From the NCBI GenBank assembly GCA_963722075.1, contig CAVRJM010000001.1, positions 704,001 through 768,000 of the forward strand: DNA of 64,000 nt, given 5' to 3'. Shown here one piece after another: positions 1,335-42,405 of the stretch. The notes below the pieces were generated by a model. That model did not search any database. It had not been told where the DNA came from and was given only the letters and a program-made list of their open reading frames with translations. The DNA comes from Candidatus Babeliales bacterium. GTDB lineage: Bacteria > Babelota > Babeliae > Babelales > JANWKD01. The position numbers and the translations under genes were made by a program. Position 1 is the first letter of the stretch; each line of letters starts with the position of its first letter.

Positions 1335-2174
1335 ATGAAAGCCACCTATTTATTAATTTTGGTGTTTAATATATCAATGCTGACCGCAATGGAAAATGGT
1401 CATCATCAAAGCACGTATGTTGCAAATGATTTTTACTTTCATAAGAAATATAAGCTGCACCAAAATACCGATTTTTTTACCGTAGTTATAAACATTTTAA
1501 AAAGAAGAATAAAAAACTTTACCCAAAAGAAATTATGCAACGAATTTACTATTATTTCACAACATTCATTAGAAACAGTCCCCTCTATATCATTTACCAT
1601 AGAAGATATTAAAGAGGACCCGAAGAAAAAGCATCAGCGATTGATCATTGATATGCGTAATTATAACAAGGCAATTATTACTCCCTATTTGGCAGAACTT
1701 GAACAACTTAGGCATAAAAATAAATTGCTCGTAGAAATGGCACAAAGGGCTGAAAAACAGGGAGAAGAACTTACACAAGAATGGAAAAGTAGAATAAGTA
1801 AACTTGAACACATAGTGCTATTACAAAATGAGGCTGCAGGAAAAGACACAGAACTACTCAGTAAAGAATGGCAAAGAAGGTTAAACGAACTTAATGAAAA
1901 TCATAAAAAAGAACTTGTAGAATTCCAACAACAACATGATGATGAAATTATAAAATTAAATAAGCTTGTTAATTCTTATATGCATTCCGCTAAATCACCC
2001 GACACAACTCTTCAAATTGCTCAACCAATAAAAAGCAGTTTTCATCCTGCTCCAATTCAAAGTAACTTCTTCCAAAAACATCCTTACATAACTCCCTTAA
2101 CAACCTTATGCTTAGGCATCGCTGGTACGTTTGTATGGATGAAATATGCAGATCATTTAAAGAGCTTTTTATAA
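1335..2174 (+). CDS. Secreted coiled-coil protein with C-terminal TM helix
   Basis: Signal peptide ...MLTA|MEN, E/K/Q-rich helical middle, hydrophobic tail [23 protein letters not shown]. Confidence 0.75.
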
Positions 2175-3145
2175 TACCCAAAGCCTTCTTTTTCTGGATC
2201 TTCAACGGGAATAAACCGCATTGCGGCGGAATTCATACAATAACGCAATCCCGTTGGCGCCGGGCCATCATTAAATACATGTCCTAAATGAGAATCACCT
2301 TTTTTACTGCGTACCTCAGTTCGCGGAGAAATTCCGGTCGTATCTTCCTTTTGAATAATATTCTTTGGTTCAATTGGTTGAGTAAAACTTGGCCACCCAG
2401 TACCCGAATCATATTTATCTAAAGAACTAAAAAGTGGTTCACCAGTAACAACGTCAACATATATGCCCGGTCTTTTATTATCCCAGTATTCATTATCAAA
2501 TGGCTTTTCAGTTTGATCTAATTGCGTAACTTCGTATTGCAGTGGTGTTAACTTCTTTTGCAATTCTTGTTCAGAAGATGATGTCGGTTGCTTTTCAATC
2601 TTATTTGCCCATGCTTGGCTAATAAAACTATCACGCCCAGAATTGGATCGATATAATGAATAGCCCTGAGGATTTTTTTTATAATAATCTTGGTGATATT
2701 CTTCGGCCTTATAAAATGGGGATTCTTTGAGAATTTCAGTAACAATCGGTTTTTTAAATCTACCTGATTGTTGTAATTCTTGTTTTGATTTTTCAGCGAG
2801 TTCCTTTTGATGCTCATCATGATAAAAAATAGCTGATCTATAGTGTGGCCCTCGATCAACAAATTGCCCGCCAGAATCAGTGGGATCAATCTGCTGCCAA
2901 AAAGTATCAAGTAATTTTTCATATGAGATTATGGATGGGTCATAAATAATTTGATTGGCCTCAATATGACCCTTTTGAGCATAATCATTGTAGGTGGGAT
3001 TTTCTCCGGTGCCACCCGTATAACCAGCAACCACACTCACCACACCGTTTAATTTTTCAAACGGTGATTGCATACACCAAAAACAACCACCAGCAAACGT
3101 AGCTTTTTCAAGCTTTTTATTAGTATCCGTTGTATTAGCTACCAT
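2153..3145 (-). CDS. msrAB: Bifunctional peptide methionine sulfoxide reductase MsrA/MsrB
   Basis: MsrA GGCFWC and AEEYHQDYY; MsrB GTGWPSF, HLGHVF and RYCMNS. Confidence 0.96.
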
Positions 3146-3456
3146 CGTATCACCTCTCTACAAAACTAAAAACGGGCGAATAGAAATTTGAATATTAGTT
3201 ATTGAGTACAATACAAAATTGTATACGGTCATTGCAATTAAGAAATATATAAAATCATACTGTTACTCGATTTAAATAAAGGCTTTGATATAATTTAAGT
3301 AAAATTCTATAAATTGGGGTAACGGGAGCATCCTTAGATGCTCAATTAATTAAATTGATTATCTGCAATTATATTTATTTCTTACGCATATTTCTTAACC
3401 GTATGCTTGGAAAAAACTAATATCTATTTTTTAACCACTATTTTTTGAGGAATTCA

Positions 3457-5325
3457 ATGAATTACAATTATAATTATAATGTTGTTCGTTTTTGCTTTTT
3501 TATATTATTACTTTTTCATCATGCATGCTCAAGCTGTGAGGCATCCGATCGTTGTCATTCGGGTTTAAGCACATCGGTTATAACAAAAAATGAAGAGCGG
3601 GATTTGGAGCTTTTTGACTCTCTTAACCAGTCTCATCAAGGCATTTTTTCGGTTTTTGATAAAACCTACACTGCATCAGGTAAATTACGCTTGATGTATC
3701 ATTTAAAAAACCCAACAACTGATGTTTCACTTCTTAAATTACGGCAAGAGCAGATTAAGTTTTTACTTGAAAATCCTACATTACTTGAAGAAATAAAAGG
3801 ACTGCTTGCACGCATTAAAGCTGCTGAACCCGATCTATTATATTTTATTAATAACCAAGAAGATCCGGTTGCGCATACTATTATTGATACCTTCTACTTC
3901 AAGAATACCCTGTTAAAAGATTTAAATGAAAGTAGTATTGCTCTTGATGTACGTAACTACCTAAAGCAGCTTGGCTTATTTAGCCCGGTAATTGAGCATC
4001 TCGTGTTTCATTTTGCTCTTTCCTTTATTCAGGAAAAATTAACGCAGAATCCTACTGAGCATCACCACCATCATCACGATCATGAGGCTCATCATGATCA
4101 CGCCCATAGCAATTGCTCTCATTATTGCGTAAGTAGTCTTAAAGCACCCGCTGATTCTTCAACTTTTGTTAAAGGTGCTTTTACTGCATTAAAAGCTGCT
4201 CACTTTGGCATGCACTTACTGGGTATCAAGGAAATGATTCAGCAAATGGGCGCAGAATTAGCTGTCGTAAATCAACTGTATAAAAAAGTTGCCTCGGTAA
4301 AAGAAGGTCTCCATGCAATTATTACGTTACATAATCGTATGCAAGAGAGTAATTATGTATACAATTCCTTCGCCTCTCAGCTGGTAGATAGTGATACTCT
4401 TAACATTGAATCAAATATAAAATTTTTTGCTCCGCTTCTTGATAGTACCTATTTTGACAGCAACAGCTCACTAGGATATTTCTCTCCTATTGGTAACACC
4501 GTATACAACTATCAGCTACTCAAGAATAATGCGAGTTTATTGCAATCTTTTATGGCAGCTGTAGCAGATATAGATGCACTGGTTTCTATTGTCGAATGGT
4601 GTAAAGAACAGACAACTAAAAAAGCGCCTGTTTGTTTTGTAGATTTTGTTACTGGGGTTTGTACACCGGTTATTGTACTAGAAGGCATGCGGCATGTGGG
4701 GCTTTCTCCAGACGATGCAGTTATGAATGATATTGAATTGAGTGCTGATAAAGGGGCTTATAAGTTTATTATCACCGGTCCGAATAAGTCAGGTAAATCG
4801 ACCATTATAAAAGCAGTAGGTCTCAATATTATTCTTGCACAAACTTTTGGTATTGCCGCGGCACATAATGCAAAAATTACCGTGTTTCGTAAATTATTAA
4901 CGTACATCACCATAACTGATGATATAGTACAAGATCGTTCACTGTTTGTGGCTGAATTATTACGTGCAGAAGAATGCATCCAGGCATTACAATCATTACC
5001 AACAGATGAGCTTGCGTGTATATTACTTGACGATTCATTATTTAAAGGTACCAGCCTTGAGAAATCGCAGGATATAGCACTTCGTTTTTTAATTAAGATA
5101 GGTAGTTATTCTAATAGTTGTGCTCTCATTGCTACTCACTGTGCTGCATTGACACAATTGGAGGAAGAAAACCCTACTATTTTTAAGAATTATCGCATTA
5201 AGATAGGCGCTGATGCACAGGGTAACGCCGAAAGTCTATTTATATTAGAAGAAGGGATTGCTAATCAAGCAGCTGTTTTTGATGTTATTAAAGGACAGCG
5301 CACGGCTTCTTTTTTAGATAACTAA
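3457..5325 (+). CDS. MutS-related ATPase (core and domain V only) with signal-like N-terminus and His-rich insert
   Basis: Walker A GPNKSGKST, SLFVAEL, ATH and L-EG motifs of MutS domain V; ATG 3457 follows GAGG. Confidence 0.85.
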   Translation: MNYNYNYNVVRFCFFILLLFHHACSSCEASDRCHSGLSTSVITKNEERDLELFDSLNQSHQGIFSVFDKTYTASGKLRLMYHLKNPTTDVSLLKLRQEQIKFLLENPTLLEEIKGLLARIKAAEPDLLYFINNQEDPVAHTIIDTFYFKNTLLKDLNESSIALDVRNYLKQLGLFSPVIEHLVFHFALSFIQEKLTQNPTEHHHHHHDHEAHHDHAHSNCSHYCVSSLKAPADSSTFVKGAFTALKAAHFGMHLLGIKEMIQQMGAELAVVNQLYKKVASVKEGLHAIITLHNRMQESNYVYNSFASQLVDSDTLNIESNIKFFAPLLDSTYFDSNSSLGYFSPIGNTVYNYQLLKNNASLLQSFMAAVADIDALVSIVEWCKEQTTKKAPVCFVDFVTGVCTPVIVLEGMRHVGLSPDDAVMNDIELSADKGAYKFIITGPNKSGKSTIIKAVGLNIILAQTFGIAAAHNAKITVFRKLLTYITITDDIVQDRSLFVAELLRAEECIQALQSLPTDELACILLDDSLFKGTSLEKSQDIALRFLIKIGSYSNSCALIATHCAALTQLEEENPTIFKNYRIKIGADAQGNAESLFILEEGIANQAAVFDVIKGQRTASFLDN

Positions 5326-5342
5326 ATATATAAATGAATGAC

Positions 5343-5381
5343 ATGAAGCAAAAAATACTTTTGCCTGTTTTTTTGCTTCAT
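5343..5381. terminator. Hairpin between convergent genes, possible bidirectional terminator
   Basis: ATGAAGCAAAAAA...TTTTTTGCTTCAT inverted repeat. Confidence 0.45.
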
Positions 5382-6691: not shown

Positions 6692-6924
6692 TGAGTACTA
6701 TCTAAATTAATTTCAATATTGTCGCGGCTATCTATACTATTAACTAAAGCACGAATTGCTCGTACTACACGCCCTTCTTTACCGATAATTCGCTTAAGAT
6801 CAGGATGGGCTACTCGTACTTCTATAATAGTCTTAGGACCTGAATCAGGTTTTTCTCTTACAAGAACTAGCTGTGGGTTATCTACCAACTGCTTTACAAT
6901 ATATTCAACAAGATCGGTTACCAT
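6688..6924 (-). CDS. khpA: KH-domain RNA-binding protein (KhpA/YlqC)
   Basis: LVEYIVKQLVDNP and IIGKEGR (GxxG); canonical position after rpsP. Confidence 0.9.
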   Translation of the reverse strand: MVTDLVEYIVKQLVDNPQLVLVREKPDSGPKTIIEVRVAHPDLKRIIGKEGRVVRAIRALVNSIDSRDNIEINLDSTQ

Positions 6925-6935
6925 TCTATCCTATA

Positions 6936-7193
6936 TTATGCCGCAGCTGTCTTTTGCTTATTATATTTTTTTTGTAATTTAGAAACTGATTCAGTTGGAA
7001 TAGCACCTTTAGAAATCCAATCATTGATTCGCTCTTGATGGAATTGGATAATTTCACCCGTAAGCGGGTTATACGTACCAAGATCCTCAATAAACATCCC
7101 ATCCCTTTTTCTGCGAGAATCGATCGCTACAATTCTATAAAATGGGGCCTTTTTTTTGCCAATGCGCGATAGACGTATCTTAACGGCCATCAA
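6936..7193 (-). CDS. rpsP: 30S ribosomal protein S16
   Basis: MAVKIRLSRIGKKKAPFYRIVAIDSR...GTYNP. Confidence 0.97.
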   Translation of the reverse strand: MMAVKIRLSRIGKKKAPFYRIVAIDSRRKRDGMFIEDLGTYNPLTGEIIQFHQERINDWISKGAIPTESVSKLQKKYNKQKTAAA

Positions 7194-7285
7194 TAATTCC
7201 TTTCAATAAGTGTACTATTTAGATAAGGTAAATATACCATAAATACTCTTTTTTTCAAATGTTAACCAAAATGAGGTATTAATTA

Positions 7286-8848: not shown

Positions 8849-9184
8849 TCAATATAAAGCTTTAAGAATAAAATGAATACTAACCAAAGTTAACGCGCAT
8901 GTTGAAATTGCAGGCAATATAGTTTTTTTATATTTTGCATACGATGATTGTGTTTTTTTACTTAATTGCTCTAAATTACATGATTTTATTTCTTTTAATG
9001 AAAACTCATTAGCATTCTTGTTTGGTATTTTTTTTAACTTTTTTTTAGTTTTTTGTAATGAGCAATAAGCACCATAGCCAAAGGCCATCCCTATGCCCGA
9101 AAAAATAACAGAATCTATTATGCAATAAACTGATGAAGAACAAAGTAAGATAGATAAAAATAATAAGGTTTTCTTTAATAACAT
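8849..9184 (-). CDS. Hypothetical membrane protein
   Basis: N-terminal signal/TM segments and a C-terminal hydrophobic helix; 9 nt upstream of ffh. Confidence 0.6.
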   Translation of the reverse strand: MLLKKTLLFLSILLCSSSVYCIIDSVIFSGIGMAFGYGAYCSLQKTKKKLKKIPNKNANEFSLKEIKSCNLEQLSKKTQSSYAKYKKTILPAISTCALTLVSIHFILKALY

Positions 9185-11945: not shown

Positions 11946-12947
11946 ATGAATAAATTAACAACTAGCTTACTCGTTGTAGCTTCACTCAATTTTTGCGCAC
12001 AAGCAATGGAACAGCAGCAACAAGTACAAACCATAACCCTTATGACAGAAACACCAAAATTATCTAAGAATCAAAAGAATAAATTTGAAAAAAAGTCACC
12101 ACAAGAGCTCGGCACTAGTTTTATGAATTTATCAGATCAATTAGCCAAGGCACACAAAAACGCTGTTGATGTAGCAAAAGATCCTCGCAGGTCCCAAAGA
12201 GCTGAGATTTGGAATCTTTTAAAAATTAAAGTTGGTAAGGATAAAGCACGAGAATATGCATATGGATACGCCGATGATTTTAGCGATGAAGAAAAAGACT
12301 TTGAGCAAATAGATAAGGATGATTATTCATGGAAACGCTTTTATGAAAACTCAAAGCGTAAAACCGATACGGTTATTTCTGGAATTGGCACCAAAAAAGA
12401 AGTTGCTGAAACTAGTATAATTGCTGCTCAACAACGAGAAAAAGTAATTGAAGAAAAAACACGAAATGTAAAAGAACAAAATGATGCAGCAATAAAAATT
12501 CTTAACGCTAAAATTGAAGAACTTGAATTATTAAGCAAAAAACATGAAGATGTCGCGGAAAAAGAATTAGAAGAAATTGCTCATGAAGTAGGAGTTTTAC
12601 AATCTTCAGTTGAGAAATATACCAAAGCAATTGTTCACCACACCAATACAAAGAAGCAGAATGAGGCAGTATTGATGAAAGTGAAAGAAGAACGCACAAA
12701 AGAATTAGAAGAACTAGATAAAACTATTGAGCAATTTAATGGCGAGCTAGAAGCGTTATTACTTAATAATCAGCAGTCAAATTATGCAAAAATTAAAACC
12801 GATCTTGAAGGTTCCAAACAAAAAGCAGTTCAACGAAAAAAAGATTTGCATGCAGAATTGGATGATATTAATTACCGTTTACCAAAAATTAATGAACCCG
12901 GTTCAAAAACACGTTATTTAACAGGCTGGTTTTATTCAACAAAATAA
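11946..12947 (+). CDS. Secreted coiled-coil protein
   Basis: ATG 11946 follows AGGAG; signal ...CAQA|MEQ; long K/E-rich helical region. Confidence 0.75.
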   Translation: MNKLTTSLLVVASLNFCAQAMEQQQQVQTITLMTETPKLSKNQKNKFEKKSPQELGTSFMNLSDQLAKAHKNAVDVAKDPRRSQRAEIWNLLKIKVGKDKAREYAYGYADDFSDEEKDFEQIDKDDYSWKRFYENSKRKTDTVISGIGTKKEVAETSIIAAQQREKVIEEKTRNVKEQNDAAIKILNAKIEELELLSKKHEDVAEKELEEIAHEVGVLQSSVEKYTKAIVHHTNTKKQNEAVLMKVKEERTKELEELDKTIEQFNGELEALLLNNQQSNYAKIKTDLEGSKQKAVQRKKDLHAELDDINYRLPKINEPGSKTRYLTGWFYSTK

Positions 12948-17412: not shown

Positions 17413-17712
17413 TTAATACTGATCAAATAACATAGAAACCACACCAGCAATACCATATAATACAGATATATATGCTATTGTATAACAATTTTCATTGAAA
17501 AATTCTTTAAATTCTTGCGATCGGGTTTTAGGAATAAGTTGAATTGCTTCTGGATCATAATTTTGAATCCATTCTTGTCGCATACGCTGATTAAATTCCA
17601 AAAGTTGCCCCGTTTCTTTTGCTGATTTCTTAATAAATCCTTCCTGCTTTTTTTGCATTGAAGACAACGGCAATACACATAATAAAAACATTATTAAATA
17701 ATATTTGCTCAT
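17413..17712 (-). CDS. Small secreted protein with C-terminal TM (tandem family 1, divergent member)
   Basis: Signal ...PLSS|MQ, NYDPEA, hydrophobic tail. Confidence 0.65.
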   Translation of the reverse strand: MSKYYLIMFLLCVLPLSSMQKKQEGFIKKSAKETGQLLEFNQRMRQEWIQNYDPEAIQLIPKTRSQEFKEFFNENCYTIAYISVLYGIAGVVSMLFDQY

Positions 17713-17743: not shown

Positions 17744-18085
17744 TTAAGATTGCAGGTATTCAAGTACCATTAACCCTACTCCTGCTGCAATGCCACCACT
17801 AATACCGCTGGTCAGGAAAACAGCAAAATAGAAACAACATGGATTTTTCATTATTGCATTACCTCCATTAATAATAAAATTTTTGCCAATTGAAGCTTTT
17901 TTTTGCACAGGACGATGATAATGGGCTTCTTCGGTATCATAATTAGGGCTATCGATTGCATATGCTCTTCGCTCTCGGATATAGTTTATCAAAATCTCTT
18001 CATTAGATAATTGTTCTTTGCCAATTTCCATTGAATACAATGGAACTATGGATAATAAAGTCATGAGCAAATAACATGCACGCAT
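17744..18085 (-). CDS. Small secreted protein with C-terminal TM (tandem family 1)
   Basis: ATG 18085 follows AAGGAG; ...PLYS|ME, NYDTEEA, GNAIMKNPC, SGGI, ends YLQS. Confidence 0.7.
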   Translation of the reverse strand: MRACYLLMTLLSIVPLYSMEIGKEQLSNEEILINYIRERRAYAIDSPNYDTEEAHYHRPVQKKASIGKNFIINGGNAIMKNPCCFYFAVFLTSGISGGIAAGVGLMVLEYLQS

Positions 18086-18114: not shown

Positions 18115-18465
18115 TTAAGATTGTAAATATTGAAGTATCAATGAAGTTATTGTATACGATATAAGGGCTGAAATACCGCCACTTATACTTCCTATTGCCC
18201 CCAGAATACAAAGATTGCGACAGGGATTTTTTATTATTGCATTACCTTCTTTAATAATATGTTTCTTACACCATGGTTCATTTCTTAGTGCAGTATAATG
18301 GAACGTGGCTTCCTCAACATCATAATTACTGCTATTACTTACAAAGGCTTTATGAGTTCGGATATATTTTCTTATTGGCTCTTGATCATACTCCATCGAA
18401 AGTAAATTCCCAACAATAGGAATAACACAACCTAATAATAGTAAAATGCAATATAGCTTTTTCAT
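18115..18465 (-). CDS. Small secreted protein with C-terminal TM (tandem family 1)
   Basis: ...NLLS|ME, NYDVEEA, GNAIIKNPC, SGGI, ends YLQS; clear paralog of its neighbour. Confidence 0.7.
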   Translation of the reverse strand: MKKLYCILLLLGCVIPIVGNLLSMEYDQEPIRKYIRTHKAFVSNSSNYDVEEATFHYTALRNEPWCKKHIIKEGNAIIKNPCRNLCILGAIGSISGGISALISYTITSLILQYLQS

Positions 18466-18477: not shown

Positions 18478-19362
18478 CTAATCTTTTAATAATTTCATTA
18501 TCTGTTTAAACTGTTCTTTTTTTTCAGCGTTATTTTTGTTTATTTTTTTCTGTTTACGTGCCGTTTCATACGCATCTTTACTATTTGCACCCTTACTCAA
18601 TAATAGTTGCACCACCGTAATCTGCCCTGCAAACACAGCGCTCATCAAAGCAGTAGGCCCTTGCTCAATTTTTCCATGTGGCCACATAGAGCGCTTACCG
18701 CGTTCATCAATACCGGCACCATGTCGTAAAAGCAAATCTACAATCAATGAAAAACCTTTTGAAGCAGCTTCTTGTAAATGTCTAAAGTCATCATATTCAT
18801 TATCAATTGTAACTGGGGCGCCTGCGTTTAATAATAATTCTACTATTGTTACATTCCCCTTCATTGCTGCACATGTAAGCGGGTTATTAGTAAATCCGCC
18901 ATATTGTCGTATATCATGAACTGGACCTTCATCGGTAAAGTATTTTTCAAAATTAGGATTTTGCGTAAGAAAGTAGGCAACCACTGGCGTTTGACCCGTT
19001 TGAATCGCATAATTAAGAGCAGGTCTGCCAAAAAAATCTTTTTGATAGAGGTCAGCCCCTTGTTCTACTAACAATTTAATCGCTTCTAATCGACCTTTAT
19101 CGGCGGCATACATGAGTGCAGTACGATCTTTATATTTCTGATTAACGTCAATTTTATGACCAAGCAATACTTCTATAAAATCAACCTCTCCCTTTTTTGC
19201 TGCTTTATGAATGAGCGGCAATTTTTTTTTGCCTACTCGTACATCCTTTAGATTATTGGTATCAAAGCTAGATTCTTGCAGTTCTTTTTTTACCTGTTTA
19301 TATGAATGCATAGCAAAACTAACATAAGGAATTGTGCATGCAAGTAATAATTTTTTTATCAT
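18478..19362 (-). CDS. Secreted ankyrin-repeat protein
   Basis: About six repeats such as TALMYAADKG...LLVEQGAD and TALMSAVFAG...LLLSKGAN. Confidence 0.9.
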   Translation of the reverse strand: MIKKLLLACTIPYVSFAMHSYKQVKKELQESSFDTNNLKDVRVGKKKLPLIHKAAKKGEVDFIEVLLGHKIDVNQKYKDRTALMYAADKGRLEAIKLLVEQGADLYQKDFFGRPALNYAIQTGQTPVVAYFLTQNPNFEKYFTDEGPVHDIRQYGGFTNNPLTCAAMKGNVTIVELLLNAGAPVTIDNEYDDFRHLQEAASKGFSLIVDLLLRHGAGIDERGKRSMWPHGKIEQGPTALMSAVFAGQITVVQLLLSKGANSKDAYETARKQKKINKNNAEKKEQFKQIMKLLKD

Positions 19363-20262: not shown

Positions 20263-21246
20263 ATGAAAATTTTTATAAAAACCTTACTGTTATCCTCCAT
20301 TTTCCTGCAATTAATTCAAGCCATGGACCCGCAAAAAGGAATATTCCCATTTTTAGATGCACCCATAGAAATGCAACAATTAATTGTTAGTGACTTAATG
20401 AGTAGCATACCTTCCATTGCCGCTATTAAAACATATCTCAGCTTTAATAGATGTAGTAAACATTGCCGTGCCTTGATAACAGGTGATCACTTTATTACGC
20501 AAGTAGCTACCGCATGGGCCACCGACGCTGCTACGCTCGCACTCATTTTTGGTGATTTTGAATCGCCTTTGTATAAAGAAAAAAAAGAACAATTAGAACA
20601 ATTATCAAAAATAGAACGTTTAGAAGATGTTATTAATTCTAAATGTAGCTATTCTAGGGAACCTCAAAGAACTCTTAACAATTTCAAATATTCACCATTA
20701 GGTCTTTTGGTTCTACTTAAATTACGTTTACCCTATGACATAAAAGCAGGATTTAGAACTGCAGCAAAGGTAAATGATCCTAATCTTGTGCAATTTTTTA
20801 CAACTATGAACAATATCACTCAATCTGATCTTAATCAGGCTTTACAAGCCGCTGCCAAAAAATTAGCTTTTAAAACTATGCGCCAATTAATCGAATTAAA
20901 TGCGGATATTACTACTCGTAATCGATCAGAAAATACCGTACTCTTAAGAACAATACGCGACTACTACAGAAATAAAACAGTAAAATCGACCAGAGTTGAT
21001 TCCTCTTTTGATAAGTTTCTTTCGATTTTAAATCTGCTTATCACTCCTTCCACTATTAATGAGAGAAATGATTATAGATTTTCTCCTATTGATCATGCAT
21101 TGCTTGAAGAAGATTCCGTTTTAGCACAGTTCTTAATTAATAACGGCGCTGATACTTCCGAATGCGATGAAGAAAAGCTATCAGATCTTTTAAAATCAGA
21201 TAATAAATTCGATGCAAGGGCCTCAAAGAGATCCCTATGCAATTGA
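20263..21246 (+). CDS. Secreted F-box-like plus ankyrin-repeat protein
   Basis: Signal ...IQA|MD; FLDAPIEMQQLIV...FNRCSKHCRAL (F-box-like); ALQAAAK...LNAD and SPIDHAL...FLINNGAD (ankyrin). Confidence 0.7.
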   Translation: MKIFIKTLLLSSIFLQLIQAMDPQKGIFPFLDAPIEMQQLIVSDLMSSIPSIAAIKTYLSFNRCSKHCRALITGDHFITQVATAWATDAATLALIFGDFESPLYKEKKEQLEQLSKIERLEDVINSKCSYSREPQRTLNNFKYSPLGLLVLLKLRLPYDIKAGFRTAAKVNDPNLVQFFTTMNNITQSDLNQALQAAAKKLAFKTMRQLIELNADITTRNRSENTVLLRTIRDYYRNKTVKSTRVDSSFDKFLSILNLLITPSTINERNDYRFSPIDHALLEEDSVLAQFLINNGADTSECDEEKLSDLLKSDNKFDARASKRSLCN

Positions 21247-21498: not shown

Positions 21499-22182
21499 AT
21501 GAAAATTATTATAAAAGTATTTATTTTATCATTAGTAGTTTTTACTTCATTGCATGGTATGGAGAAAGATATAATCCATGGTTTTTTATTTTCAACCTCC
21601 AGGAATAATGTACAGCAAGATTCAATTCGTAGCTTTTATAAAGCAGTACAAAATAATGATGCTCAGACAGTGGATTTTCTCACCGCTAACGCAGCTCAAT
21701 TACCGCTCAGTACCAAGAGGCTAAATAAAGCCTTAAAGAAAGCTACCGACCTTAATGTTTATAGTTATGATGTTATTCCGGTTCTTATTAATCGCGGTGC
21801 AGACATTTCTACTAAAGACAAAAGAAAATACACACCGCTTATGCGCGCAATCGAACAATTTAATACACTTCAACATAGCCGATCATCCCAGAGACCTAAT
21901 GTAACTTATGATGAATTGTTTAAAACATTACTGTTATTAATCAATGAAAATACTATAAATGAAGCCGCGCCTAAAACGGTAACTTATAGACCTGCGCCAA
22001 CTCCCTTAGCACTTGCAATATTATACAGAGATCCATTATTAGTAGAATTTCTTATTGAACATGGTGCTGATAAAAAATCGCTTGTTGATGTGTGGAGACA
22101 ACAAAGACCCCTTTCAGAATATGCTCAAGGAGTAGAAATGCCTAAGGAAGACAAAGAAAAAATAGTTAAGTTATTAGAATGA
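21499..22182 (+). CDS. Secreted ankyrin-repeat protein, paralogous to the C-half of 20263-21246
   Basis: ...SLHG|ME; LNKALKKA, YTPLMRAI and TPLALAI...FLIEHGAD. Confidence 0.85.
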   Translation: MKIIIKVFILSLVVFTSLHGMEKDIIHGFLFSTSRNNVQQDSIRSFYKAVQNNDAQTVDFLTANAAQLPLSTKRLNKALKKATDLNVYSYDVIPVLINRGADISTKDKRKYTPLMRAIEQFNTLQHSRSSQRPNVTYDELFKTLLLLINENTINEAAPKTVTYRPAPTPLALAILYRDPLLVEFLIEHGADKKSLVDVWRQQRPLSEYAQGVEMPKEDKEKIVKLLE

Positions 22183-31709: not shown

Positions 31710-32171
31710 TTATTTTTCCTGATCTTTAGGAAATTTAGGCTTTCTCTTAAGCATGTGAATAATAGACTTATAGGGAATAGTATTCCTTATATTAGTTTCT
31801 TTCTTAATTATTTTCTTCTTTGGTTTATTAAATGGATTTTGATAGCGTTCAGAATGTTCCGTTGAGGGACGACCTTCAACTTGCATTTCCGGATTTATTG
31901 ATTCATTTCCATCTATGAGGGCTTCAATTCCATCCCATTCACTTTGAAATTCACTAACATTTTCAGGAACAATTTCTTCACCATCTCTAGATTGAAAAAG
32001 ATTTTGCATAGCTAATTGTTCTACAAAATTATTTGATGAAGCGGATTCATGCGTTATTTGCAATAATTGCTGTTGAATCTCATTATCTTGTTCTTGTAGT
32101 CGTGAATCTTCCATCGCACTGAGCGAAGCAAAACTCATTATTAAAAATAACGCGTATAATAATTTCATCAT
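31710..32171 (-). CDS. Secreted low-complexity protein with basic C-terminus
   Basis: ATG 32171 follows GAAGGA; ...SLSA|MED; KPKKKIIKK and KRKPK. Confidence 0.65.
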   Translation of the reverse strand: MMKLLYALFLIMSFASLSAMEDSRLQEQDNEIQQQLLQITHESASSNNFVEQLAMQNLFQSRDGEEIVPENVSEFQSEWDGIEALIDGNESINPEMQVEGRPSTEHSERYQNPFNKPKKKIIKKETNIRNTIPYKSIIHMLKRKPKFPKDQEK

Positions 32172-32194: not shown

Positions 32195-32527
32195 TCAATC
32201 ATGAGGTTGCTGAAAAATTGATTGAGGTAAAACCTCACTCGTGAATCGATCGAATGCAAGTTTACGCCGTATGCGCTTTATAGCTCTACTACGTTGCGGC
32301 TTCATGATCTTTTTTTGAAAGGTCTTTTTCCTTGTTGTATTGCGCGGAGGAGTCAAATTATTCCGCATTACCGTACTTTCTTCTTCATTTTCACGCTGAT
32401 TTTTAGGGAAACAAGTTTCATATAAATCTGACCGAATTTCCGGCATTGGATTTTCATCACCATTTTCCATTGAGAAAGTTACAATTGGAAATATAAATGA
32501 TAAAAGTAACAATAGTAAAATATACAT
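32195..32527 (-). CDS. Secreted low-complexity protein with basic region
   Basis: ...VTFS|MEN; TPPR and KRIRRKLAF. Confidence 0.65.
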   Translation of the reverse strand: MYILLLLLLSFIFPIVTFSMENGDENPMPEIRSDLYETCFPKNQRENEEESTVMRNNLTPPRNTTRKKTFQKKIMKPQRSRAIKRIRRKLAFDRFTSEVLPQSIFQQPHD

Positions 32528-34044: not shown

Positions 34045-34275
34045 ATGAATAAAAAATTATTGTATTTTAATTTGTTTATTGTAATCACCTTAAATGGTAT
34101 GAATAACAATCAAAAAACTCCCATAGAAAAATTAAAAGAAAATCTTATAGCTTTAAAAACTAAAATACCACCTCAAGTTCCATCCAATCAACAAAATGAA
34201 GATCTTTCAGATTCATCAGAACCCTTTTGTGGCTTTAAAAAAGGTTTTTTAAATAATCAAGAAAATGAAAATTGA
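34045..34275 (+). CDS. Small secreted protein
   Basis: ATG 34045 follows AAGGA; ...TLNG|MN. Confidence 0.55.
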   Translation: MNKKLLYFNLFIVITLNGMNNNQKTPIEKLKENLIALKTKIPPQVPSNQQNEDLSDSSEPFCGFKKGFLNNQENEN

Positions 34276-34558: not shown

Positions 34559-34990
34559 ATGAATAAATCTTTATTATTTAAAGCAGTACTCCTATCAGTT
34601 GCTTTATTATTTTCTTGCCAAACATTCAGCATGGAATCTCTAAAAAAGAGACAAGAATCATTACACCAATGGTTTGCAGATCATTCTACCTGCAAAGCAA
34701 TAGCAGTAGCCTGTGGAACAGCTATTCCCATGATTGCAGTTTCAGCTTTCTTAACGAATTATCAATCTGAATTGGGATTCGGCAATATTAAAACTGATAA
34801 TTACCATAATATAAGCGCTGCATTGGGAGTCGCAAGTGGATGCGCATCAGGCTTTTTAACATATATGTATCCAGAAATTAGTTTTGCATATCCAATTTTG
34901 GCAGGTTTATTTTATGTTACCAAAAAAATAGGCTGTCAGATGGTAGAAGATTTTGTAATACCCCCGCTCTCTTGCAGAAGGCCAATTTAG
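34559..34990 (+). CDS. Secreted multi-TM protein (tandem family 2)
   Basis: ATG follows AGGA; ...QTFS|ME; QWFADH and GVASGCASGFLTY.YP. Confidence 0.7.
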   Translation: MNKSLLFKAVLLSVALLFSCQTFSMESLKKRQESLHQWFADHSTCKAIAVACGTAIPMIAVSAFLTNYQSELGFGNIKTDNYHNISAALGVASGCASGFLTYMYPEISFAYPILAGLFYVTKKIGCQMVEDFVIPPLSCRRPI

Positions 34991-35047: not shown

Positions 35048-35509
35048 ATGAAAAAATCGTTAATTTTCAACTCAATAGCAATCTTATTGCTTGCTGCATC
35101 AATATGCACACAATCACATGCCATGTTTAAGTTTAATTATCATGAAACAAAACAATGGTTTGTAAATCATCCAAATTATAAAAAAGCACTTGTTATCGGC
35201 GCTACTATTGCTCCTATGGTTATTGTCCCGTCGGTTTTAGCATGTACGCAAGCACGCATGGTAACAGAAAGCAATGGCTACACCGAATGGAACAATATAA
35301 GTTTTGACAATACCCATCCCTATTTAAACGCTTTAGCGGGTATAGGTTCTGGCTTAGCGGCTGGCTGTTTTACTTATAACTATCCACAAGTAACCGCACT
35401 TACTACAAAAGCTAGTGCATTAGTTGGCCTTGGCGGGTTGGCACTTGCAACCGGCGTATATGTTATCACAAAAGCAGGATCTCAATTAGCAAAAATTATT
35501 ACTCAATAA
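35048..35509 (+). CDS. Secreted multi-TM protein (tandem family 2)
   Basis: ...QSHA|MF; QWFVNHP and GIGSGLAAGCFTY.YP. Confidence 0.7.
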   Translation: MKKSLIFNSIAILLLAASICTQSHAMFKFNYHETKQWFVNHPNYKKALVIGATIAPMVIVPSVLACTQARMVTESNGYTEWNNISFDNTHPYLNALAGIGSGLAAGCFTYNYPQVTALTTKASALVGLGGLALATGVYVITKAGSQLAKIITQ

Positions 35510-35554: not shown

Positions 35555-35941
35555 ATGAACAAATCATTATTAACTAAAACACTGTTCTTATTACTTATTG
35601 CATCGTGCATTACATCAACTTATCCGATGCAAAAATCAAAATTGGAACAATGGGTATATGACCATCCATCTTTAAGCACTTTTATAGCAACAATAATACC
35701 CGCTATTGCGATCCCTACTATTTTAACCTATGCGCCACCGTCAAAAAGGTTTGACGACATCAGTTCTAATCATAAATTATTAATGGGATTAGTAGGCGGG
35801 TTCGGCTCAGGATTTTTAATGTATAACGAACCTGAACTTTCCCTTGCTTGTTTTAAAGGTGGAACAATAGGGTTAGGAATTGGAGCAATAGTAACTATTG
35901 CTCGTTTAGGAATCAAAAAAATCTTCCAAAGCAACAAATAA
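35555..35941 (+). CDS. Secreted multi-TM protein (tandem family 2)
   Basis: ...STYP|MQ; QWVYDHP and GLVGGFGSGFLMY.EP. Confidence 0.7.
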   Translation: MNKSLLTKTLFLLLIASCITSTYPMQKSKLEQWVYDHPSLSTFIATIIPAIAIPTILTYAPPSKRFDDISSNHKLLMGLVGGFGSGFLMYNEPELSLACFKGGTIGLGIGAIVTIARLGIKKIFQSNK

Positions 35942-36584: not shown

Positions 36585-36619
36585 GATATATATTCTTATT
36601 TATAATATTTGTTTAAGAT

Positions 36620-36979
36620 TTAAAAATAATTTAAAAATAAATAAAAAAATCTTTTGAGAGAATTTTTTATAGTTGATTGCTCATTTAATGCTTTAATTCT
36701 TGCCCCAATTAATGGGCCCTTTTTTTCATACAACTCATTTTTTATTACATCCCAATAAACCGCACGTTTCTGTTCTTTTGAAGCCAAATCAATGGGGTAC
36801 GGTTTTCCATTAATCATAAGAAGGTGCTTACTTGGTTTATGAACAATAAATAATTCATCGTGGTTTGAAACAATTTTTAATTTATTAATGCGCGAAACAG
36901 ATTTTTTTTGATCAATAAACTCCATACTTGATGCGGTAAAAAAAATGCTCAATGCCAAGACACAAAAAAAAAGTACCAA
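36620..36979 (-). CDS. Hypothetical secreted protein
   Basis: TTG start follows GAGGAG; ...TASS|ME. Confidence 0.6.
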   Translation of the reverse strand: MVLFFCVLALSIFFTASSMEFIDQKKSVSRINKLKIVSNHDELFIVHKPSKHLLMINGKPYPIDLASKEQKRAVYWDVIKNELYEKKGPLIGARIKALNEQSTIKNSLKRFFYLFLNYF

Positions 36980-37167
36980 TAAAAGCTCCTCACTTCGTGA
37001 ATGTATAAATATTTTATTGATTTTAAAATGTTTTTTTTAAAAAACAATAGCTTTCTTTTTTTTATTTTTTTATTATCCTAGCAACATTAGAACAAACGCT
37101 TTTAAATAGAAGCCATAAGATTAATCAAAAGTAAATACGAATAACAAACTAAGGACAAATAATTTCA

Positions 37168-38514
37168 ATGAGCACCACCTCCCATCCTTCTAGCGTAATA
37201 CCATCTACTATTTCACCTATGCAATCTGTTCTTCATGACGATGCAACTATTGTTATTAATCAATCGTTAGAACTAAAAGGACAGGCAACATTAAGCGGTG
37301 CAAAAAATGCAGTATTAGTTATCATTGCCTCACTGATCTTAACAGAAGGAAAATCAGCATTATATAATGTTCCTAATTCAGATGATGTCCTGCAAATGAT
37401 TTCCTTAATGCGTGAACTTGGTGCTCATATTCAATTTGATAGCACGCAAAACAAACTTGAAGTAGAAACCTCTTTTATTTCTAATTATAAAGTATCACCA
37501 TCGCTCATGAAGAAGATGCGCGCCTCGGTATTAGTGATGGGCCCCCTTCTGGCTCGTTTTGCACGAGCTGAAATTGCGCTTCCGGGCGGTTGCTTACTGG
37601 GCGCACGGCCAATCGATTATCATATAAAAAATTTTGAAAAAATGGGTGTTATTTTTACTATTGATGGGGAATTTTTAAGCGGCATTACTGATCGATTAAA
37701 GCCTGCTCGTATCGTACTTGATTACCCAAGCGTTGGTGCAACTGAAAATCTCTTAATGGCAGCAGTACTCACCCCAGGAACCACACATATTATCAATGCA
37801 GCATTAGAACCAGAAGTATTGGATTTAATTTCTATACTTACAAAAATGGGTGCGCTGATATCTATTGATGCACCGGCTACTATTATAATACAAGGGGTGC
37901 AAAAATTACGCGCCATTGAGCATCATATCATATTTGATCGGCTTGAAGCGGGTGCCTTATTACTAGCAACGGCAATCACCGGCGGCTCTATTTATTTACC
38001 ACAAGCCCGCGCTGATCAATTGGATGTTTTCTTGTTAAAACTCCATGAGATGGGACATCATATTGAAACTGATTCAGGACAAGGCATACGATTACGTGCA
38101 ACAAAAACACCACGTGCGGTCTCATTTACTACTGCTCCTTATCCGGGGTTTCCTACTGATTTACAAGCTCCTATGATGGCAGCACAATGTCTTGCTAATG
38201 GCAAAAGTGAAATTCATGAAACGGTATTTGAAAATAGATTATTACATGTACGTGAATTACAAAAAATGGGCGCCCAAATAACCGTCAAAGGCGACCGCGC
38301 CTTGGTAACGGGCGTGGATACCTTATATGGCACTTCCGTTATTGCTACTGATATTCGTGCCTCATGCGCACTGGTACTAGCAGGCTTAGCGGCCCGTGGC
38401 ACTACTGTTATGACCGGCATTAATCATTGGAAACGCGGGTACGAAGCACTAGAAAAAAAATTGGCACAATTAGGCGCTTCTATTACTGTCCAAAAATTAG
38501 TACAACAAACCTAA
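37168..38514 (+). CDS. murA: UDP-N-acetylglucosamine 1-carboxyvinyltransferase
   Basis: GAKNA, MRAS, PGGCLLGARP (catalytic Cys), YPGFPTDLQ and TDIRAS. Confidence 0.97.
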   Translation: MSTTSHPSSVIPSTISPMQSVLHDDATIVINQSLELKGQATLSGAKNAVLVIIASLILTEGKSALYNVPNSDDVLQMISLMRELGAHIQFDSTQNKLEVETSFISNYKVSPSLMKKMRASVLVMGPLLARFARAEIALPGGCLLGARPIDYHIKNFEKMGVIFTIDGEFLSGITDRLKPARIVLDYPSVGATENLLMAAVLTPGTTHIINAALEPEVLDLISILTKMGALISIDAPATIIIQGVQKLRAIEHHIIFDRLEAGALLLATAITGGSIYLPQARADQLDVFLLKLHEMGHHIETDSGQGIRLRATKTPRAVSFTTAPYPGFPTDLQAPMMAAQCLANGKSEIHETVFENRLLHVRELQKMGAQITVKGDRALVTGVDTLYGTSVIATDIRASCALVLAGLAARGTTVMTGINHWKRGYEALEKKLAQLGASITVQKLVQQT

Positions 38515-39353
38515 AAAAAGCCACCAATAAGATCAGTAAGTTCGGCCGTAATTTTAGCCTGGCGCATCTTATTATAGGTAAGGCGCATAGAATCAAGTAA
38601 AGTACCGGCACTGCGTGTTGAATTATCCATAGCAATAAAGCGCGCTGCTTGCTCAGCTACTAATGATTGGAATAACAGCTCATACATAGTTATATATACC
38701 ATTTGCTCAATAAGATAATTTAAGATATCGCCGGGAGGTTCTTCCCATATATATTCATTAAAAATATCTTTTTGGGTACCGGTATCTTGTACGGTAAATG
38801 GAATAAGTTGCGTAATTTGGGGTTTTTGCACAAAGAACGTTTTTGAAAAGTTGCTATAAATCATTACGGCGCTGTGAGAGCCAGCGGTTTTTACGATATA
38901 TTCACTTATCTGCCGACAAATAACTTCTATATTTGCAATAGAAAAGGTATCAAAATTTTGAATGATTGTATTATTGGCATGACGCGCATATTCATGTGCT
39001 TTTTTACCGATGGTAATAAGCATTGGCTTTTCTTGATTTTTAACTGCTTTTTCAAAAAAGGCAAAAAGCTCTGTATTAAAATTACCACATAATCCTTTTT
39101 GTGATCCGATTAAAATGGCTAATTGGGGAGCATTAGTATTCTCTGCCCTTAATAATGGATGGTTCCAATTTGTTTGCCCAGCATAGAGGGGCAAAAAAAT
39201 AGCTGCTATTTGTTGCCTATATTCTTCAATACCATTTTTTTTAGATCGCAATCGTAAATGGCTCGACATAGAAATTAAGCGCAACGCATGCGTTATTTTT
39301 TTGATCGTTTTAATAGCTTTAATGCGCTGGCGCATTCGAATTAATTGAGACAT
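38511..39353 (-). CDS. atpG: F1 ATP synthase gamma subunit
   Basis: KGLCGNFN, EQAARFIAMDN and YNKMRQAKITAEL. Confidence 0.95.
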   Translation of the reverse strand: MSQLIRMRQRIKAIKTIKKITHALRLISMSSHLRLRSKKNGIEEYRQQIAAIFLPLYAGQTNWNHPLLRAENTNAPQLAILIGSQKGLCGNFNTELFAFFEKAVKNQEKPMLITIGKKAHEYARHANNTIIQNFDTFSIANIEVICRQISEYIVKTAGSHSAVMIYSNFSKTFFVQKPQITQLIPFTVQDTGTQKDIFNEYIWEEPPGDILNYLIEQMVYITMYELLFQSLVAEQAARFIAMDNSTRSAGTLLDSMRLTYNKMRQAKITAELTDLIGGFF

Positions 39354-39562
39354 ACAATTTGCCTTATTATAATGAAGAAGCTACTTTCTAATGTAATAAG
39401 GATAGGGCAATTTTGCAATTTATTATCCTTAATTGAGATCATTTTACCGTCACCGCTCAATGAATCTACTTGAAACAAAGCATACTACAATGGTTGTATT
39501 ATTACCTATAAATTATTTATAATATACATAAAAAAATATTATAAGGTATATGAAAATAATTC

Positions 39563-40132
39563 ATGAAATTACTCATTGACGGTTATAATCTGTTAAAAAA
39601 AATAAAAAAAACATCGTATATTACGGATAGTGAGCGCAATAAATTTCTTAAACAACTCAACAATTATGCACATCAAAAAAAGTTATCTATCATTATTGTG
39701 TTTGATGGTGGTCCATTTAATTGGCCTCAGCATGAAAAGATGAGTTCGGTGGTAGAGGTAATTTATTCCGGGGCACAGCAAAACGCAGATACCTATATAA
39801 AGCAGTACTTAGATGAACACGCTAATAAAGAGCTGTTATTAATAAGTAGTGATCGAGAATTAGTAAATTACGCACATAACCATAACGTTATTTCATTGGA
39901 TTCTTATACCTTTTCTGAATTACTCTATCACAATCAATCATTACCAAAAATAGCTACTCATAAAGAGCCCCTACGCAAATTGACCATTCAAAGCACACCA
40001 GAGCTTGATATCTTAATGGAACAGTTAAAAGTGCCAACAAAAACTACTGAGGATAGAAAACGGGAACGGGGAAAAACTCATACTTTATCTAAAGAAGAGC
40101 GCAAATTATTACAAAAATTGAAGAAGTTATGA
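39563..40132 (+). CDS. NYN/PIN-domain ribonuclease (YacP/Rae1-like)
   Basis: IDGYN, VFDG, ADTYI and SSDREL acidic motifs. Confidence 0.85.
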   Translation: MKLLIDGYNLLKKIKKTSYITDSERNKFLKQLNNYAHQKKLSIIIVFDGGPFNWPQHEKMSSVVEVIYSGAQQNADTYIKQYLDEHANKELLLISSDRELVNYAHNHNVISLDSYTFSELLYHNQSLPKIATHKEPLRKLTIQSTPELDILMEQLKVPTKTTEDRKRERGKTHTLSKEERKLLQKLKKL

Positions 40133-40142
40133 CATATAAAAA

Positions 40143-40240
40143 TGTCATTCTGAGACCGTAGGCGTAAGAATCCAGTAATAAAAATAAGCCTTTTATATAT
40201 TCACTGGATCCTCACGGCGCTCTCGCGCCTCAGGATGACA
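40143..40240. repeat. Family A palindromic element, empty
   Basis: TGTCATTCTGAG...GTAAGAATCCAG...CTGGATCCTCACG...CTCAGGATGACA. Confidence 0.85.
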
Positions 40241-40246
40241 TCTTGA

Positions 40247-40669
40247 TTATATTGTAACCTTGGGCACCGCCGAAGATTTCTCTAATAACATTTTCCGTGC
40301 GATTTGTATAAAGGCAATCATCAATGCAGTCGCGGTTATTTCACGCCACCAAATGCGTGGTACGGTACTCAATCCTTGAATAAACGTCCAGAATGAAATT
40401 TCACTCTCTGTTAAAATATTACGCCCATCATAACGCAATTCTTTTGCATATTGTAAGGCAGCTTCCTTAGAAAAAAGATAGCGATGCCCTATATCAGTTA
40501 AAATTTCACCCAATGCCCATAATGTAACACCACCAATAAAAAAACGGGCGAGCAGCGGTTTTAAAAAAGAATCCGGCTGTTGGCTTATAATGGGGGGCTT
40601 TATGTTCTGATTATCTGCATTCACAAAACTACCGCTTAACAATAGAAAAAAGAAAATTATTTTTTTCAT
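40247..40669 (-). CDS. Hypothetical membrane protein
   Basis: Signal ...FVNA|DN plus two hydrophobic helices. Confidence 0.65.
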   Translation of the reverse strand: MKKIIFFFLLLSGSFVNADNQNIKPPIISQQPDSFLKPLLARFFIGGVTLWALGEILTDIGHRYLFSKEAALQYAKELRYDGRNILTESEISFWTFIQGLSTVPRIWWREITATALMIAFIQIARKMLLEKSSAVPKVTI

Positions 40670-40761
40670 GATAAAGATTCTCCCACTATTAAGATTGTTT
40701 TGATAAATAAAAGTAGTATATAATAAATTATATTATTTCAATCATAATAAAAAACAAGCGG

Positions 40762-41205
40762 ATGAATATTGCTTTAAATTCAAAATCGGTAACATTTTCG
40801 TTAGATACTCTTAATACCATTGCGCATGATCTGTATGTATTAAAAAATCAATGCGCTATTTATACCTTTGAGGGCCCATTAGGCGCCGGTAAAACAACCT
40901 TAGTAAGATCGTTATTTAAGCAATTTGATATTCATGCTCCTATCACTAGCCCTACTTTCAGCTATATGAATGTATATGAAAACAATAAAGGCGAACTTTT
41001 ATATCATTTTGATTTATATCGCTTAACAAATCTTAATGAATTTTTAGAAGCTGGCTTTGATGAATTTTTATATGTACCTAATAGTTGGGCTTTTATAGAA
41101 TGGCCAAAAATTATTAAATCATTATTAACTAAAAATGTCTGTGATATTACTCTTGATTATGGAGCTGATCAACAGCATAGAATTTTACAATGTAGCATAC
41201 GATAA
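40762..41205 (+). CDS. tsaE: tRNA threonylcarbamoyladenosine biosynthesis ATPase TsaE
   Basis: GPLGAGKTT, ITSPTF, YHFDLYRL and IEWP. Confidence 0.96.
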   Translation: MNIALNSKSVTFSLDTLNTIAHDLYVLKNQCAIYTFEGPLGAGKTTLVRSLFKQFDIHAPITSPTFSYMNVYENNKGELLYHFDLYRLTNLNEFLEAGFDEFLYVPNSWAFIEWPKIIKSLLTKNVCDITLDYGADQQHRILQCSIR

Positions 41206-41232
41206 TAAGTTCTATTATATTTTGTTTTCGTT

Positions 41233-41793
41233 CTATTTTTGCATCAGCACGATATCGGAATCTTTCTTTCCTCTTATATGTTTAGGAAGCAGCTTTCCAG
41301 GATTTTCTTTTTTCCATTCTCCTACGGTACATTCAATCATTACTTTGCCACCACACTCTTTAATCAATTGTTGCATTTCTTCATTACCTTCAGGAAAAAC
41401 ATCTGCCATCAATTGGGCAAATGGCAACGTATCACTGCTATCACCGTGTTTAGCAATTACGTCATCACCAAATTGAGCTAGTAACAATTTTGCTTCTTGC
41501 AGATCATTATAACGAATAGCCTGATGAAACAACCATGTCTGCGAAATTTTAGCACTAAAAATAGGCTTTCTTGCCATCAATTCAGCAATAGCTTTTTTGG
41601 TATCCTCTCCTGCATTTTTAATAATTTCTACAATTTTTTCATATTCGCATGAAAACTTGTAATTTGATATTGTTTGAGCTAATTCACTGGAATCAGCTAA
41701 ATCTTCTTCGGTAAATTCAATTACTCGTTCCATCGTATGGGTAACAGCAACCAAGGCATTAATTACTAATAGTAATCGGAAATATATTTGCAT
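41233..41793 (-). CDS. Secreted protein with a degenerate ankyrin-like segment (tandem family 3)
   Basis: ...VTHT|ME; WLFHQAIRYND...LLAQFGD. Confidence 0.7.
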   Translation of the reverse strand: MQIYFRLLLVINALVAVTHTMERVIEFTEEDLADSSELAQTISNYKFSCEYEKIVEIIKNAGEDTKKAIAELMARKPIFSAKISQTWLFHQAIRYNDLQEAKLLLAQFGDDVIAKHGDSSDTLPFAQLMADVFPEGNEEMQQLIKECGGKVMIECTVGEWKKENPGKLLPKHIRGKKDSDIVLMQK

Positions 41794-41829
41794 AAGATTC
41801 CTTTAACGTAAATCTTCTAAAGCCATACT

Positions 41830-42405
41830 CTATTTTTGAATGTGAACTATCTCATCATCATTTTTACCTTTAAGCCAGTCTGGTAGCTCTAAACCGGGAT
41901 GTTCCCTTAACCATTCTTGCTTATATTCACCCGCTTTGTAACATATCACCTCATGACCACCATGTTGGCTTATCAATTCTTGCATTGGTTCAGTGCCGCA
42001 CGAAAAAGAATCAGATATTAATTTAGCAAATGGTAATGTATCGCTGCCATGACCAACCGAAGCAATGATATCATCACCAAATTGAGCTATTAATTTCTTT
42101 GCTTCATCAATGTCGTTGTATCTAACAGCCTGATGAAATAACCAAGTTTATGGTATCTTAGCACTATAAATAGGATTTGCAATCATAAGTTCATATATTG
42201 CTTTTTTAAGCTCTGCTTCATTCCTTTTAATAATTTCCAAAATTCTTTTATACTCATTCATTTCTTGATAAGTATCGACACTTATACCATATGATTGGCT
42301 GGCATGCGAATGGCAGCTTCGTTTGTTTTGTTTTTCCATTGCTTGAATAGCTAAAACTAAAGATAATATTACTACTGATAAAAGATTTTTTATTTGTATG
42401 TTCAT
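41830..42405 (-). pseudogene. Paralog of 41233-41793 interrupted by one in-frame TAA (42148-42150)
   Basis: Frame continues SAKIP*TWLFHQAVRYND...GKNDDEIVHIQK*, matching SAKISQTWLFHQAIRYND...GKKDSDIVLMQK*. Confidence 0.85.

Follow-up and report, generated by a model that had tools for sequence, protein, structure and literature searches.

Between a quarter and a third of the proteins with export signals in the genome of a Candidatus Babeliales bacterium are predicted to be cut by signal peptidase I (SPase I) directly before a methionine, which is mostly followed by Glu or Gln. This signal peptide-Met junction was initially recognized in 17 open reading frames (ORFs) of a window of 64 000 nucleotides, the whole stretch of DNA that was analyzed (contig C1, positions 704001-768000), and the pattern extends far beyond the window, being found genome-wide. 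The data support the Met junction as a mark of host-directed rather than envelope proteins. The favored reading, given a probability of about 0.5, is that the predicted cut exposes Met-[E/Q/N/D] and most likely keeps delivered proteins stable in the cytosol of a eukaryotic host. The rule is real and strong, recurs across phyla and comes with a testable mechanism; its function is a prediction.

Methionine at the predicted cleavage site

The genome (1.47 Mb, 35% GC, 99% complete) is taken as belonging to the Dependentiae, a phylum whose members parasitize protists. RpoC identity is 72% to a genome recorded as Dependentiae and 52% to two alphaproteobacteria, and three divergent genes for ATP/ADP translocases are present. 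Our own gene calling kept 1373 genes, and 601 of the products were classed as signal-peptide-like by a hydrophobicity rule in which Met was scored as neutral, a set in which some members are membrane anchors or wrongly called (31 of the 569 annotated). After removal of 34 lipobox-like proteins, the other 567 were used to train a cleavage model covering positions -13 to -1, in which Met was masked; SPase I cleavage is throughout a prediction of this model, and not of SignalP or proteomics. The junction sets derived in this way comprised 130 of 567 proteins when the best site was taken, 193 of 601 when near-best sites were allowed, and 185 by a stricter combination of a regular expression with the model.

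Met occupied the predicted +1 position, to which the model was blind, in the 130 proteins of the best-site set (23%), compared with a background of 1.8%. Most offsets near +1 had Met counts of 4-14, the exception being +3 with 53, which likely reflects sites mis-placed by two. Because of this excess, and because of the low counts at most neighboring offsets, chance is excluded genome-wide as the source of the +1 Met, and the position assigned to it in the initial annotation is upheld. One fixed script, which searched for a small residue followed by Met and E, D, Q or N, was then applied both to this genome and to 68 control loci from other bacteria, with pattern-selected genes and 10 Dependentiae-like or alphaproteobacterial loci removed. 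In this genome 164 of 632 signal-like proteins had the pattern, compared with 4 of 212 from the control loci, and these four look like membrane anchors. Among ankyrin homologs from other sources, 54 had a signal, and in none of these was Met at the predicted +1 position.

The signals preceding the junction had the ordinary n-h-c layout, with a basic n-region and a hydrophobic h-region. Their mean length was 19.9 residues and position -1 was A, S or G in 160 of the 185 junction proteins, both properties matching those of the non-Met signal proteins. At -3, where the A-x-A rule has a small neutral residue, mostly L, I or S was found in Met and non-Met proteins alike, which would make this a genome-wide variant of the rule.

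At +2, E, Q, N or D was present in 142 of the 185 junction proteins (E 82, Q 30, N 18, D 12), against 26% expected from downstream residues; K was found in 12. Measured against the positions that follow immediately, E and Q were enriched and N marginally so, while D was not (12/185, p=0.5). Small residues at +2 were found in 10 of the 185 (35% expected) and hydrophobic residues in 12 (22% expected). When Met-junction and non-Met signal proteins were compared, the same four residues occupied +2 in 75/90 and 53/205 cases, respectively (p=2e-20). Inflation of this bias by paralogs was considered and rejected, as 104 of 137 families still had one of the four residues when each was represented by one protein.

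Proteins that carry the junction

Pfam was run on 569 of the 601 signal-like proteins (those of at least 90 residues with a locus reference), classes were assigned by hand, and the junction was called by our own model, blind to class. The enrichment test proposed in the initial annotation gave a clear outcome, the junction being present in 30 of 50 eukaryote-like and 2 of 42 envelope proteins (p=1e-8), with both envelope calls doubtful. The eukaryote-like carriers were ankyrin (19/28, two doubtful), WD40 (5/5), zinc finger (3/3), J-domain (3/4) and Sel1 (1/1) proteins, and among the other classes the junction was called in 176/396 proteins of no family, 5/50 other enzymes and 4/23 membrane proteins. 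Signal-bearing proteins that do not carry the Met junction include two UCH deubiquitinases (L056:17089-18114, L057:13208-14602) together with RING (L056:14869-15831), DOT1 (L023:11406-12071) and SET (L065:6751-7221) proteins, several of which appear to begin with Gln. Four GNAT acetyltransferases with signal-like leaders were also observed (L031:3049-8454, L046:4823-5392).

A CaaX-like C-terminus, C[ILVM][ILVM]x, was present in 7 of the 183 junction proteins left after removal of duplicates, where 0.15 would be expected, compared with 1/362 other signal proteins and 1/772 non-signal proteins. Eight of nine CaaX-bearing signal proteins start with M[EQND], one of the eight being a duplicate. As prenylation boxes, these putative motifs would be independent evidence for a cytosolic destination. 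A cluster of small junction proteins with CaaX-like ends lies at L040:4789-18496 (C1:812523-826230), and one of its genes is duplicated on contig C3. Motifs resembling nuclear localization signals and tail anchors gave no distinction between orphans with and without the Met. An ESM Atlas query limited to residues 1-45 gave no match. Where contigs from four DNA runs could be compared, they showed no differences, leaving no variants for a conservation test.

The junction is phylum-wide in the Dependentiae, patchy in distribution and strongest in this genome. The DNA pattern MK...[A/S]M[E/Q] gave 63 matches here (about 40 in frame and signal-like) against 6 in the reversed control; across 150 relatives the median was 20 matches, with 3 in the control, although this control underestimates chance. 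Of these relatives, 80 had at least 20 matches and 17 had no more than 10. In protein-level samples of 20-100 kb from each of 14 relatives, the junction was present in 35 of 440 proteins, ranging from 0/39 to 9/32. A record titled Pseudomonadota (G153; L152, L271-L274) has an RpoC 66% identical to that of the window genome and is probably a mislabelled member of the Dependentiae.

A scan of 11 of the 64 parts of the GTDB collection (120 stretches) led to an alphaproteobacterial genome, G151, in which rpoC and junction genes lie on the same contig, C9. The pattern was present in 15 of 73 signal-like proteins in 330 kb of this genome, on which the per-genome rate for the alphaproteobacteria is based. 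In the 46 of these 73 proteins that were scanned, the junction proteins were orphans, one F-box-like protein, a subtilase and a hydrolase, and the envelope proteins BamB, MlaA, MlaC, DacA, CtpA, LptA and a macroglobulin were without it. In-frame matches made up 64/86 in the order of G151 (27 genomes; 55/71 by hand count when G151 was left out) and 31/48 in the order of a Paracaedibacteraceae genome (31 genomes). The figures were 10/30 in the Rickettsiaceae order (31 genomes) and 26/56 in 15 mixed genomes each picked for one match, with about 36% expected by chance. By these counts the junction appears to recur in two alphaproteobacterial orders and not in the sampled Rickettsiaceae order. The alphaproteobacteria with the junction are probably intracellular, and ATP/ADP translocases were found in 5/5 genomes tested. 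No match was found between the junction proteins of this genome and the G151 sample, which would fit convergence; lateral transfer may also account for the recurrence, and kin genomes are not independent.

In the window, all 17 ORFs named in the initial annotation are present with their signal-Met junctions, and 15 have E, D, Q or N at +2, as had been claimed. Their predicted signals are 17-25 residues long, and the Met site was ranked first by the Met-blind model in 11, second or third in five and seventh in one. Counting paralogs once leaves 12-13 independent cases, against about 11-12 in the initial annotation. Toward the left end are two secreted coiled-coil orphans on the + strand, of 279 residues (1335..2174; 18-residue signal, LTA|ME, junction ATG 1389, rank 1) and 333 residues (11946..12947; AQA|ME, ATG 12006, rank 1). 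Four genes on the - strand follow, encoding a 99-residue orphan with a C-terminal hydrophobic segment (17413..17712; LSS|MQ, ATG 17658, rank 1), two paralogous orphans of 113 residues (17744..18085; LYS|ME, ATG 18031, rank 1) and 116 residues (18115..18465; LLS|ME, ATG 18396, rank 7, the weakest case), and a 294-residue ankyrin-repeat protein (18478..19362; SFA|MH, ATG 19311, rank 1). On the + strand lie a divergent 327-residue ankyrin protein with a possible F-box-like start (20263..21246; IQA|MD, ATG 20323) and its 227-residue ankyrin paralog (21499..22182; LHG|ME, ATG 21559, rank 1). The earlier F-box label for 20263 was not confirmed by Pfam. ESM Atlas placed this protein with ankyrin clusters, some of them named F-box, which is a lead only; a homolog search with it gave none.

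Further along are two - strand orphans, one acidic then basic, of 153 residues (31710..32171; LSA|ME, ATG 32114, rank 1), and one with a basic tail, of 110 residues (32195..32527; TFS|ME, ATG 32470, rank 2). A 76-residue orphan on the + strand (34045..34275; LNG|MN, ATG 34099, rank 1) precedes three members of a hydrophobic family on the same strand, of 143 residues (34559..34990; TFS|ME, ATG 34631, rank 3), 153 residues (35048..35509; SHA|MF, ATG 35123, rank 2) and 128 residues (35555..35941; TYP|MQ, ATG 35627, rank 3). The last three are - strand orphans of 119 residues, with a TTG start (36620..36979; ASS|ME, ATG 36925, rank 1), 186 residues, a paralog of 42148 (41233..41793; THT|ME, ATG 41733, rank 2), and 85 residues (42148..42405; IQA|ME, ATG 42339, rank 1).

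The window contains 26 signal-peptide-like calls. Those outside the 17 are Skp (15997), CtpA (24060), a MutS-like protein (3457) and orphans at 9184, 20105, 25690, 26793, 40669 and 63872; the lipoprotein at 746, with its lipobox Cys, likewise lacks the junction. The claim that housekeeping envelope proteins lack the junction thus holds for Skp, CtpA and the lipoprotein, but the six orphans, which had not been listed, lack it as well. Proteins with MutS domains III and V, a signal- or lipoprotein-like leader and hydrophobic segments are encoded at 3457-5325 (+) and 42637-44883 (-) of the window and at L010:1-2016. The cumulative GC skew changes from falling to rising near window position 44000, as it would close to a replication origin.

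Proposed function of the predicted N terminus

Among the interpretations offered in the initial annotation, protection from host N-degron pathways is the best. SPase I would cleave directly before the junction Met and, after Sec, the protein would exit through a type II system or vesicles. Reaching the host after translation, it would miss ribosome-bound acetylation, and the residues with which mature bacterial proteins usually begin (Ala, Ser, Gly, acidic or hydrophobic) would then be degrons. Met followed by a small residue would be clipped by methionine aminopeptidase (MetAP) to give a small-residue degron, and Met followed by a hydrophobic or basic residue would be read by UBR ligases. Met-[E/Q/N/D] would be left as the safest start, because a protein delivered post-translationally cannot count on ribosome-bound acetylation; later acetylation by host NatB may occur, and the model does not need it. 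The avoidance of small and hydrophobic residues at +2 matches the expectation from the degron classes. In the sections available of one published account, E3 ligases are described as recognizing unacetylated G/A/S/T/C, basic, hydrophobic, acidic and amide starts as well as Met-hydrophobic and Met-basic starts, MetAP as taking off Met only before small residues, and NatB loss in yeast as having no global effect on stability; the same sections give no known ligase contact with unacetylated NatB-type termini (PMC11735805).

The machinery for the proposed route comprises two secretins (932 and 799 residues) encoded in tandem and separated by GspL/PilM-like and GspM-like genes (C1:1151734-1160265), two GspE-type ATPases and pseudopilin-like genes, the GspL/M and pseudopilin labels resting on our own reading of position and sequence. 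No match to VipB, FHIPEP or VirB4, markers of the type VI, III and IV secretion systems, was found in this 99% complete genome, and because these markers are absent the junction proteins may be inferred to leave through the type II system or vesicles. A precedent is Chlamydia CPAF, which reaches the host side by Sec and then type II secretion in the available part of its description (PMC6717882). VipB was found in 4/4 and secretins, of a type not assigned, in 5/5 of the alphaproteobacteria tested.

Several observations weigh against stability in the host cytosol as the function. At +2, K, R or H, a class that would be risky under the degron model, is present in 21 of the 185 junction proteins. 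Of the 50 eukaryote-like signal proteins, 20 do not have the Met and would need some other protection, and nine eukaryote-like enzymes (two UCH, RING, SET, DOT1, two Macro, MavL-like and NADAR) are all without the junction. In samples of several families the junction is weak or absent (0/39, 0/37 and 1/45), many ankyrin proteins of the genomes G040 and G041 do not have it, and the CaaX link was not seen in the samples from relatives, whose non-Met proteins have CaaX boxes too (Cys at -4 in 1/53 junction proteins and 9/453 others). In G151, loci not chosen on matches gave only 4/44. In addition, the available sections of the degron account report some instances in which unacetylated NatB-type termini undergo degradation, and document small-residue degrons in human and plant cells and not in protists (PMC11735805).

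One alternative is that Met-[E/Q] serves as a tag for sorting and is recognized in a second export step, for example by one of the two secretins, by one of the two SPase I paralogs (C1:326730-327443 and C1:1297849-1298550, one of them near a GspE-type ATPase) or by a factor that loads vesicles. Such a tag would fit the sharp separation of envelope proteins from orphans and eukaryote-like proteins, as well as the tandem secretins and the two SPase I genes. It would also accommodate a further motif of about 20 residues, an amphipathic helix with Leu at heptad spacing, which directly follows the signal peptide in 16 proteins, nearly excludes the Met junction (1/15, p=0.046) and would mark a second class. 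This motif occurred at positions 100-146 in 1 of 1018 proteins, and its passengers are unrelated (RING, MavL-like, EEP and orphans); examples are L049:3112-3924, L046:6621-8108, L056:14869-15831 and L054:1-1341, with a weak likeness at window 34045-34275. A hidden Markov model of the helix also matched the C-termini of Macro and NUDIX proteins and gave no convincing match among 1439 proteins of relatives. Sorting is nevertheless unlikely to be the function. Two or three secretin matches were found in each of 20 Dependentiae tested, nine of them motif-poor, so that secretins do not discriminate junction-rich from motif-poor genomes; paralog families are partly mixed for the junction; and the nine enzymes, 9 of the 28 ankyrin signal proteins and some CaaX proteins do without it. 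Convergent machines would be needed for these two residues to recur in another phylum, and the analogous Gln of Bacteroidetes is not a sorting signal in the available text (PMC5837995). A second-step translocation signal could thus be entertained, though hardly as an obligate tag. Less probable still is a terminus made for acetylation by host NatB, with the acetyl group needed for targeting or partner binding. The +2 set matches the NatB set D/E/N/Q, but NatB is described, in the sections available, as acting co-translationally at the ribosome (PMC11735805), and Asp, a prime NatB +2 residue, is not enriched in this genome, though it is common in relatives (11/83).

Two further explanations were considered. 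Signal cassettes might have been grafted before existing start codons, leaving the Met as a neutral relic of gene birth. The Met of one J-domain protein does lie close to a cytoplasmic DnaJ start, and 99 of the 137 junction families are singletons, indicative of fast turnover. However, the initiator Met of cytoplasmic genes is followed by E, D, Q or N in 58/262 and by small residues in 101/262 cases, unlike the junction, and the Met is retained across paralog sets whose leaders diverged and, at an identity of about 30%, in 5/6 aligned members of the family of 34559, 35048 and 35555, with Ile in the sixth. Grafting may explain how some cases arose, does not explain the +2 bias, and is improbable as a full account. 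Very improbable is the use of the Met as an internal start, from which bacterial or host ribosomes would make an isoform lacking the signal. In its favor, 10/772 non-signal calls have a signal-like leader upstream, gene callers sometimes starting there, and the closest homolog of 18478 is recorded as starting ME (P0002). Against it, a Shine-Dalgarno (SD) match of at least 4 precedes the upstream ATG in 117/171 cases and the junction ATG in 6/171; these counts come from an SD-blind set (n=171), with which the test was repeated to remove circularity from SD-guided start calls. A Kozak-like context for host translation was also rejected, since -1 Ser was encoded by AGY in 18/45 cases against a background of 34% and +2 was likewise unbiased. 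Taken together, the Met at predicted +1 and the bias toward host-directed proteins stand from the initial annotation, and its obligate tag and acetylation code are weakened.

A broader proposition is offered tentatively, namely that the Dependentiae and two or more alphaproteobacterial orders, as unrelated intracellular bacteria, independently evolved signals that make a fake eukaryotic Met-Glu/Gln start, leaving hundreds of Sec-exported effectors invisible to host N-degron surveillance, and that, with the helix tag, this forms a mature-N-terminus code predicting which orphans enter the host cytosol. The Dependentiae and these alphaproteobacteria are largely uncultured, and the majority of the proteins they export belong to no known family. 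A two-residue rule separating host-directed from envelope proteins would yield an effector list, of about 185 in this genome, and would make testable how post-translationally delivered proteins survive host N-terminal quality control, a question on which no paper was found. It also carries a warning, as automated gene calling can pick the wrong ATG for such genes and so drop the signal peptide.

Relation to known systems

The Met-[E/Q/N/D] junction rule is apparently undescribed; no description of it was found in the literature searched, which left out supplements and subscription papers and did not use the older name TM6 by itself as a query. In Plasmodium, the PEXEL motif places RxL before a cut made by a dedicated protease, and the short N-terminus exposed on proteins exported to the host has an acidic or amide second residue. 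The similar +2 terminus makes PEXEL an analogy only, as no Arg was found at -3 in 193 junction cases and Leu at -1 in 2/193, with A, S or G at -1 instead of RxL.

Among bacteria of similar lifestyle, signal peptides are reported on 44% of the genes and 78% of the ankyrin proteins of Chromulinavorax destructans by Deeg et al., and the available text notes this excess and does not contain the word 'methionine' (PMC6561590). Nor does the available text on a Paracaedibacter-like symbiont with 158 signal proteins (PMC8163844), and no mature N-terminal rule was seen in the accessible parts of the C. destructans and Chlamydia CPAF accounts (PMC6561590, PMC6717882). The NatB substrate class has in common with the junction that Met before D/E/N/Q is kept, and that its stability is least dependent on acetylation, going by the sections available. 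It is made on host ribosomes and acetylated co-translationally (PMC11735805), whereas the junction terminus, which has D/E/N/Q after Met in 142/185 cases, would be the product of a bacterial signal peptidase.

The closest known kind is the Q-rule of Bacteroidetes, likewise a lineage-level rule on the residue after the SPase I site that was found statistically and is not a generic sorting signal; there, according to the text available, the residue is Gln, cyclised by an enzyme of the bacterium, and the rule covers most substrates in all compartments (PMC5837995). A later paper, in its accessible part, ties this Gln to stability (PMC10653852). Here the residue is Met with a +2 bias, on host-directed proteins only, and no bacterial modifying enzyme was identified. 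Gln at +1 was not enriched (24/567, against 130/567 for Met), and the split between envelope (2/42) and eukaryote-like proteins (30/50) departs from a rule for all compartments. Judged by these counts, the junction is not a member of the Q-rule, though the Q-rule is its nearest counterpart.

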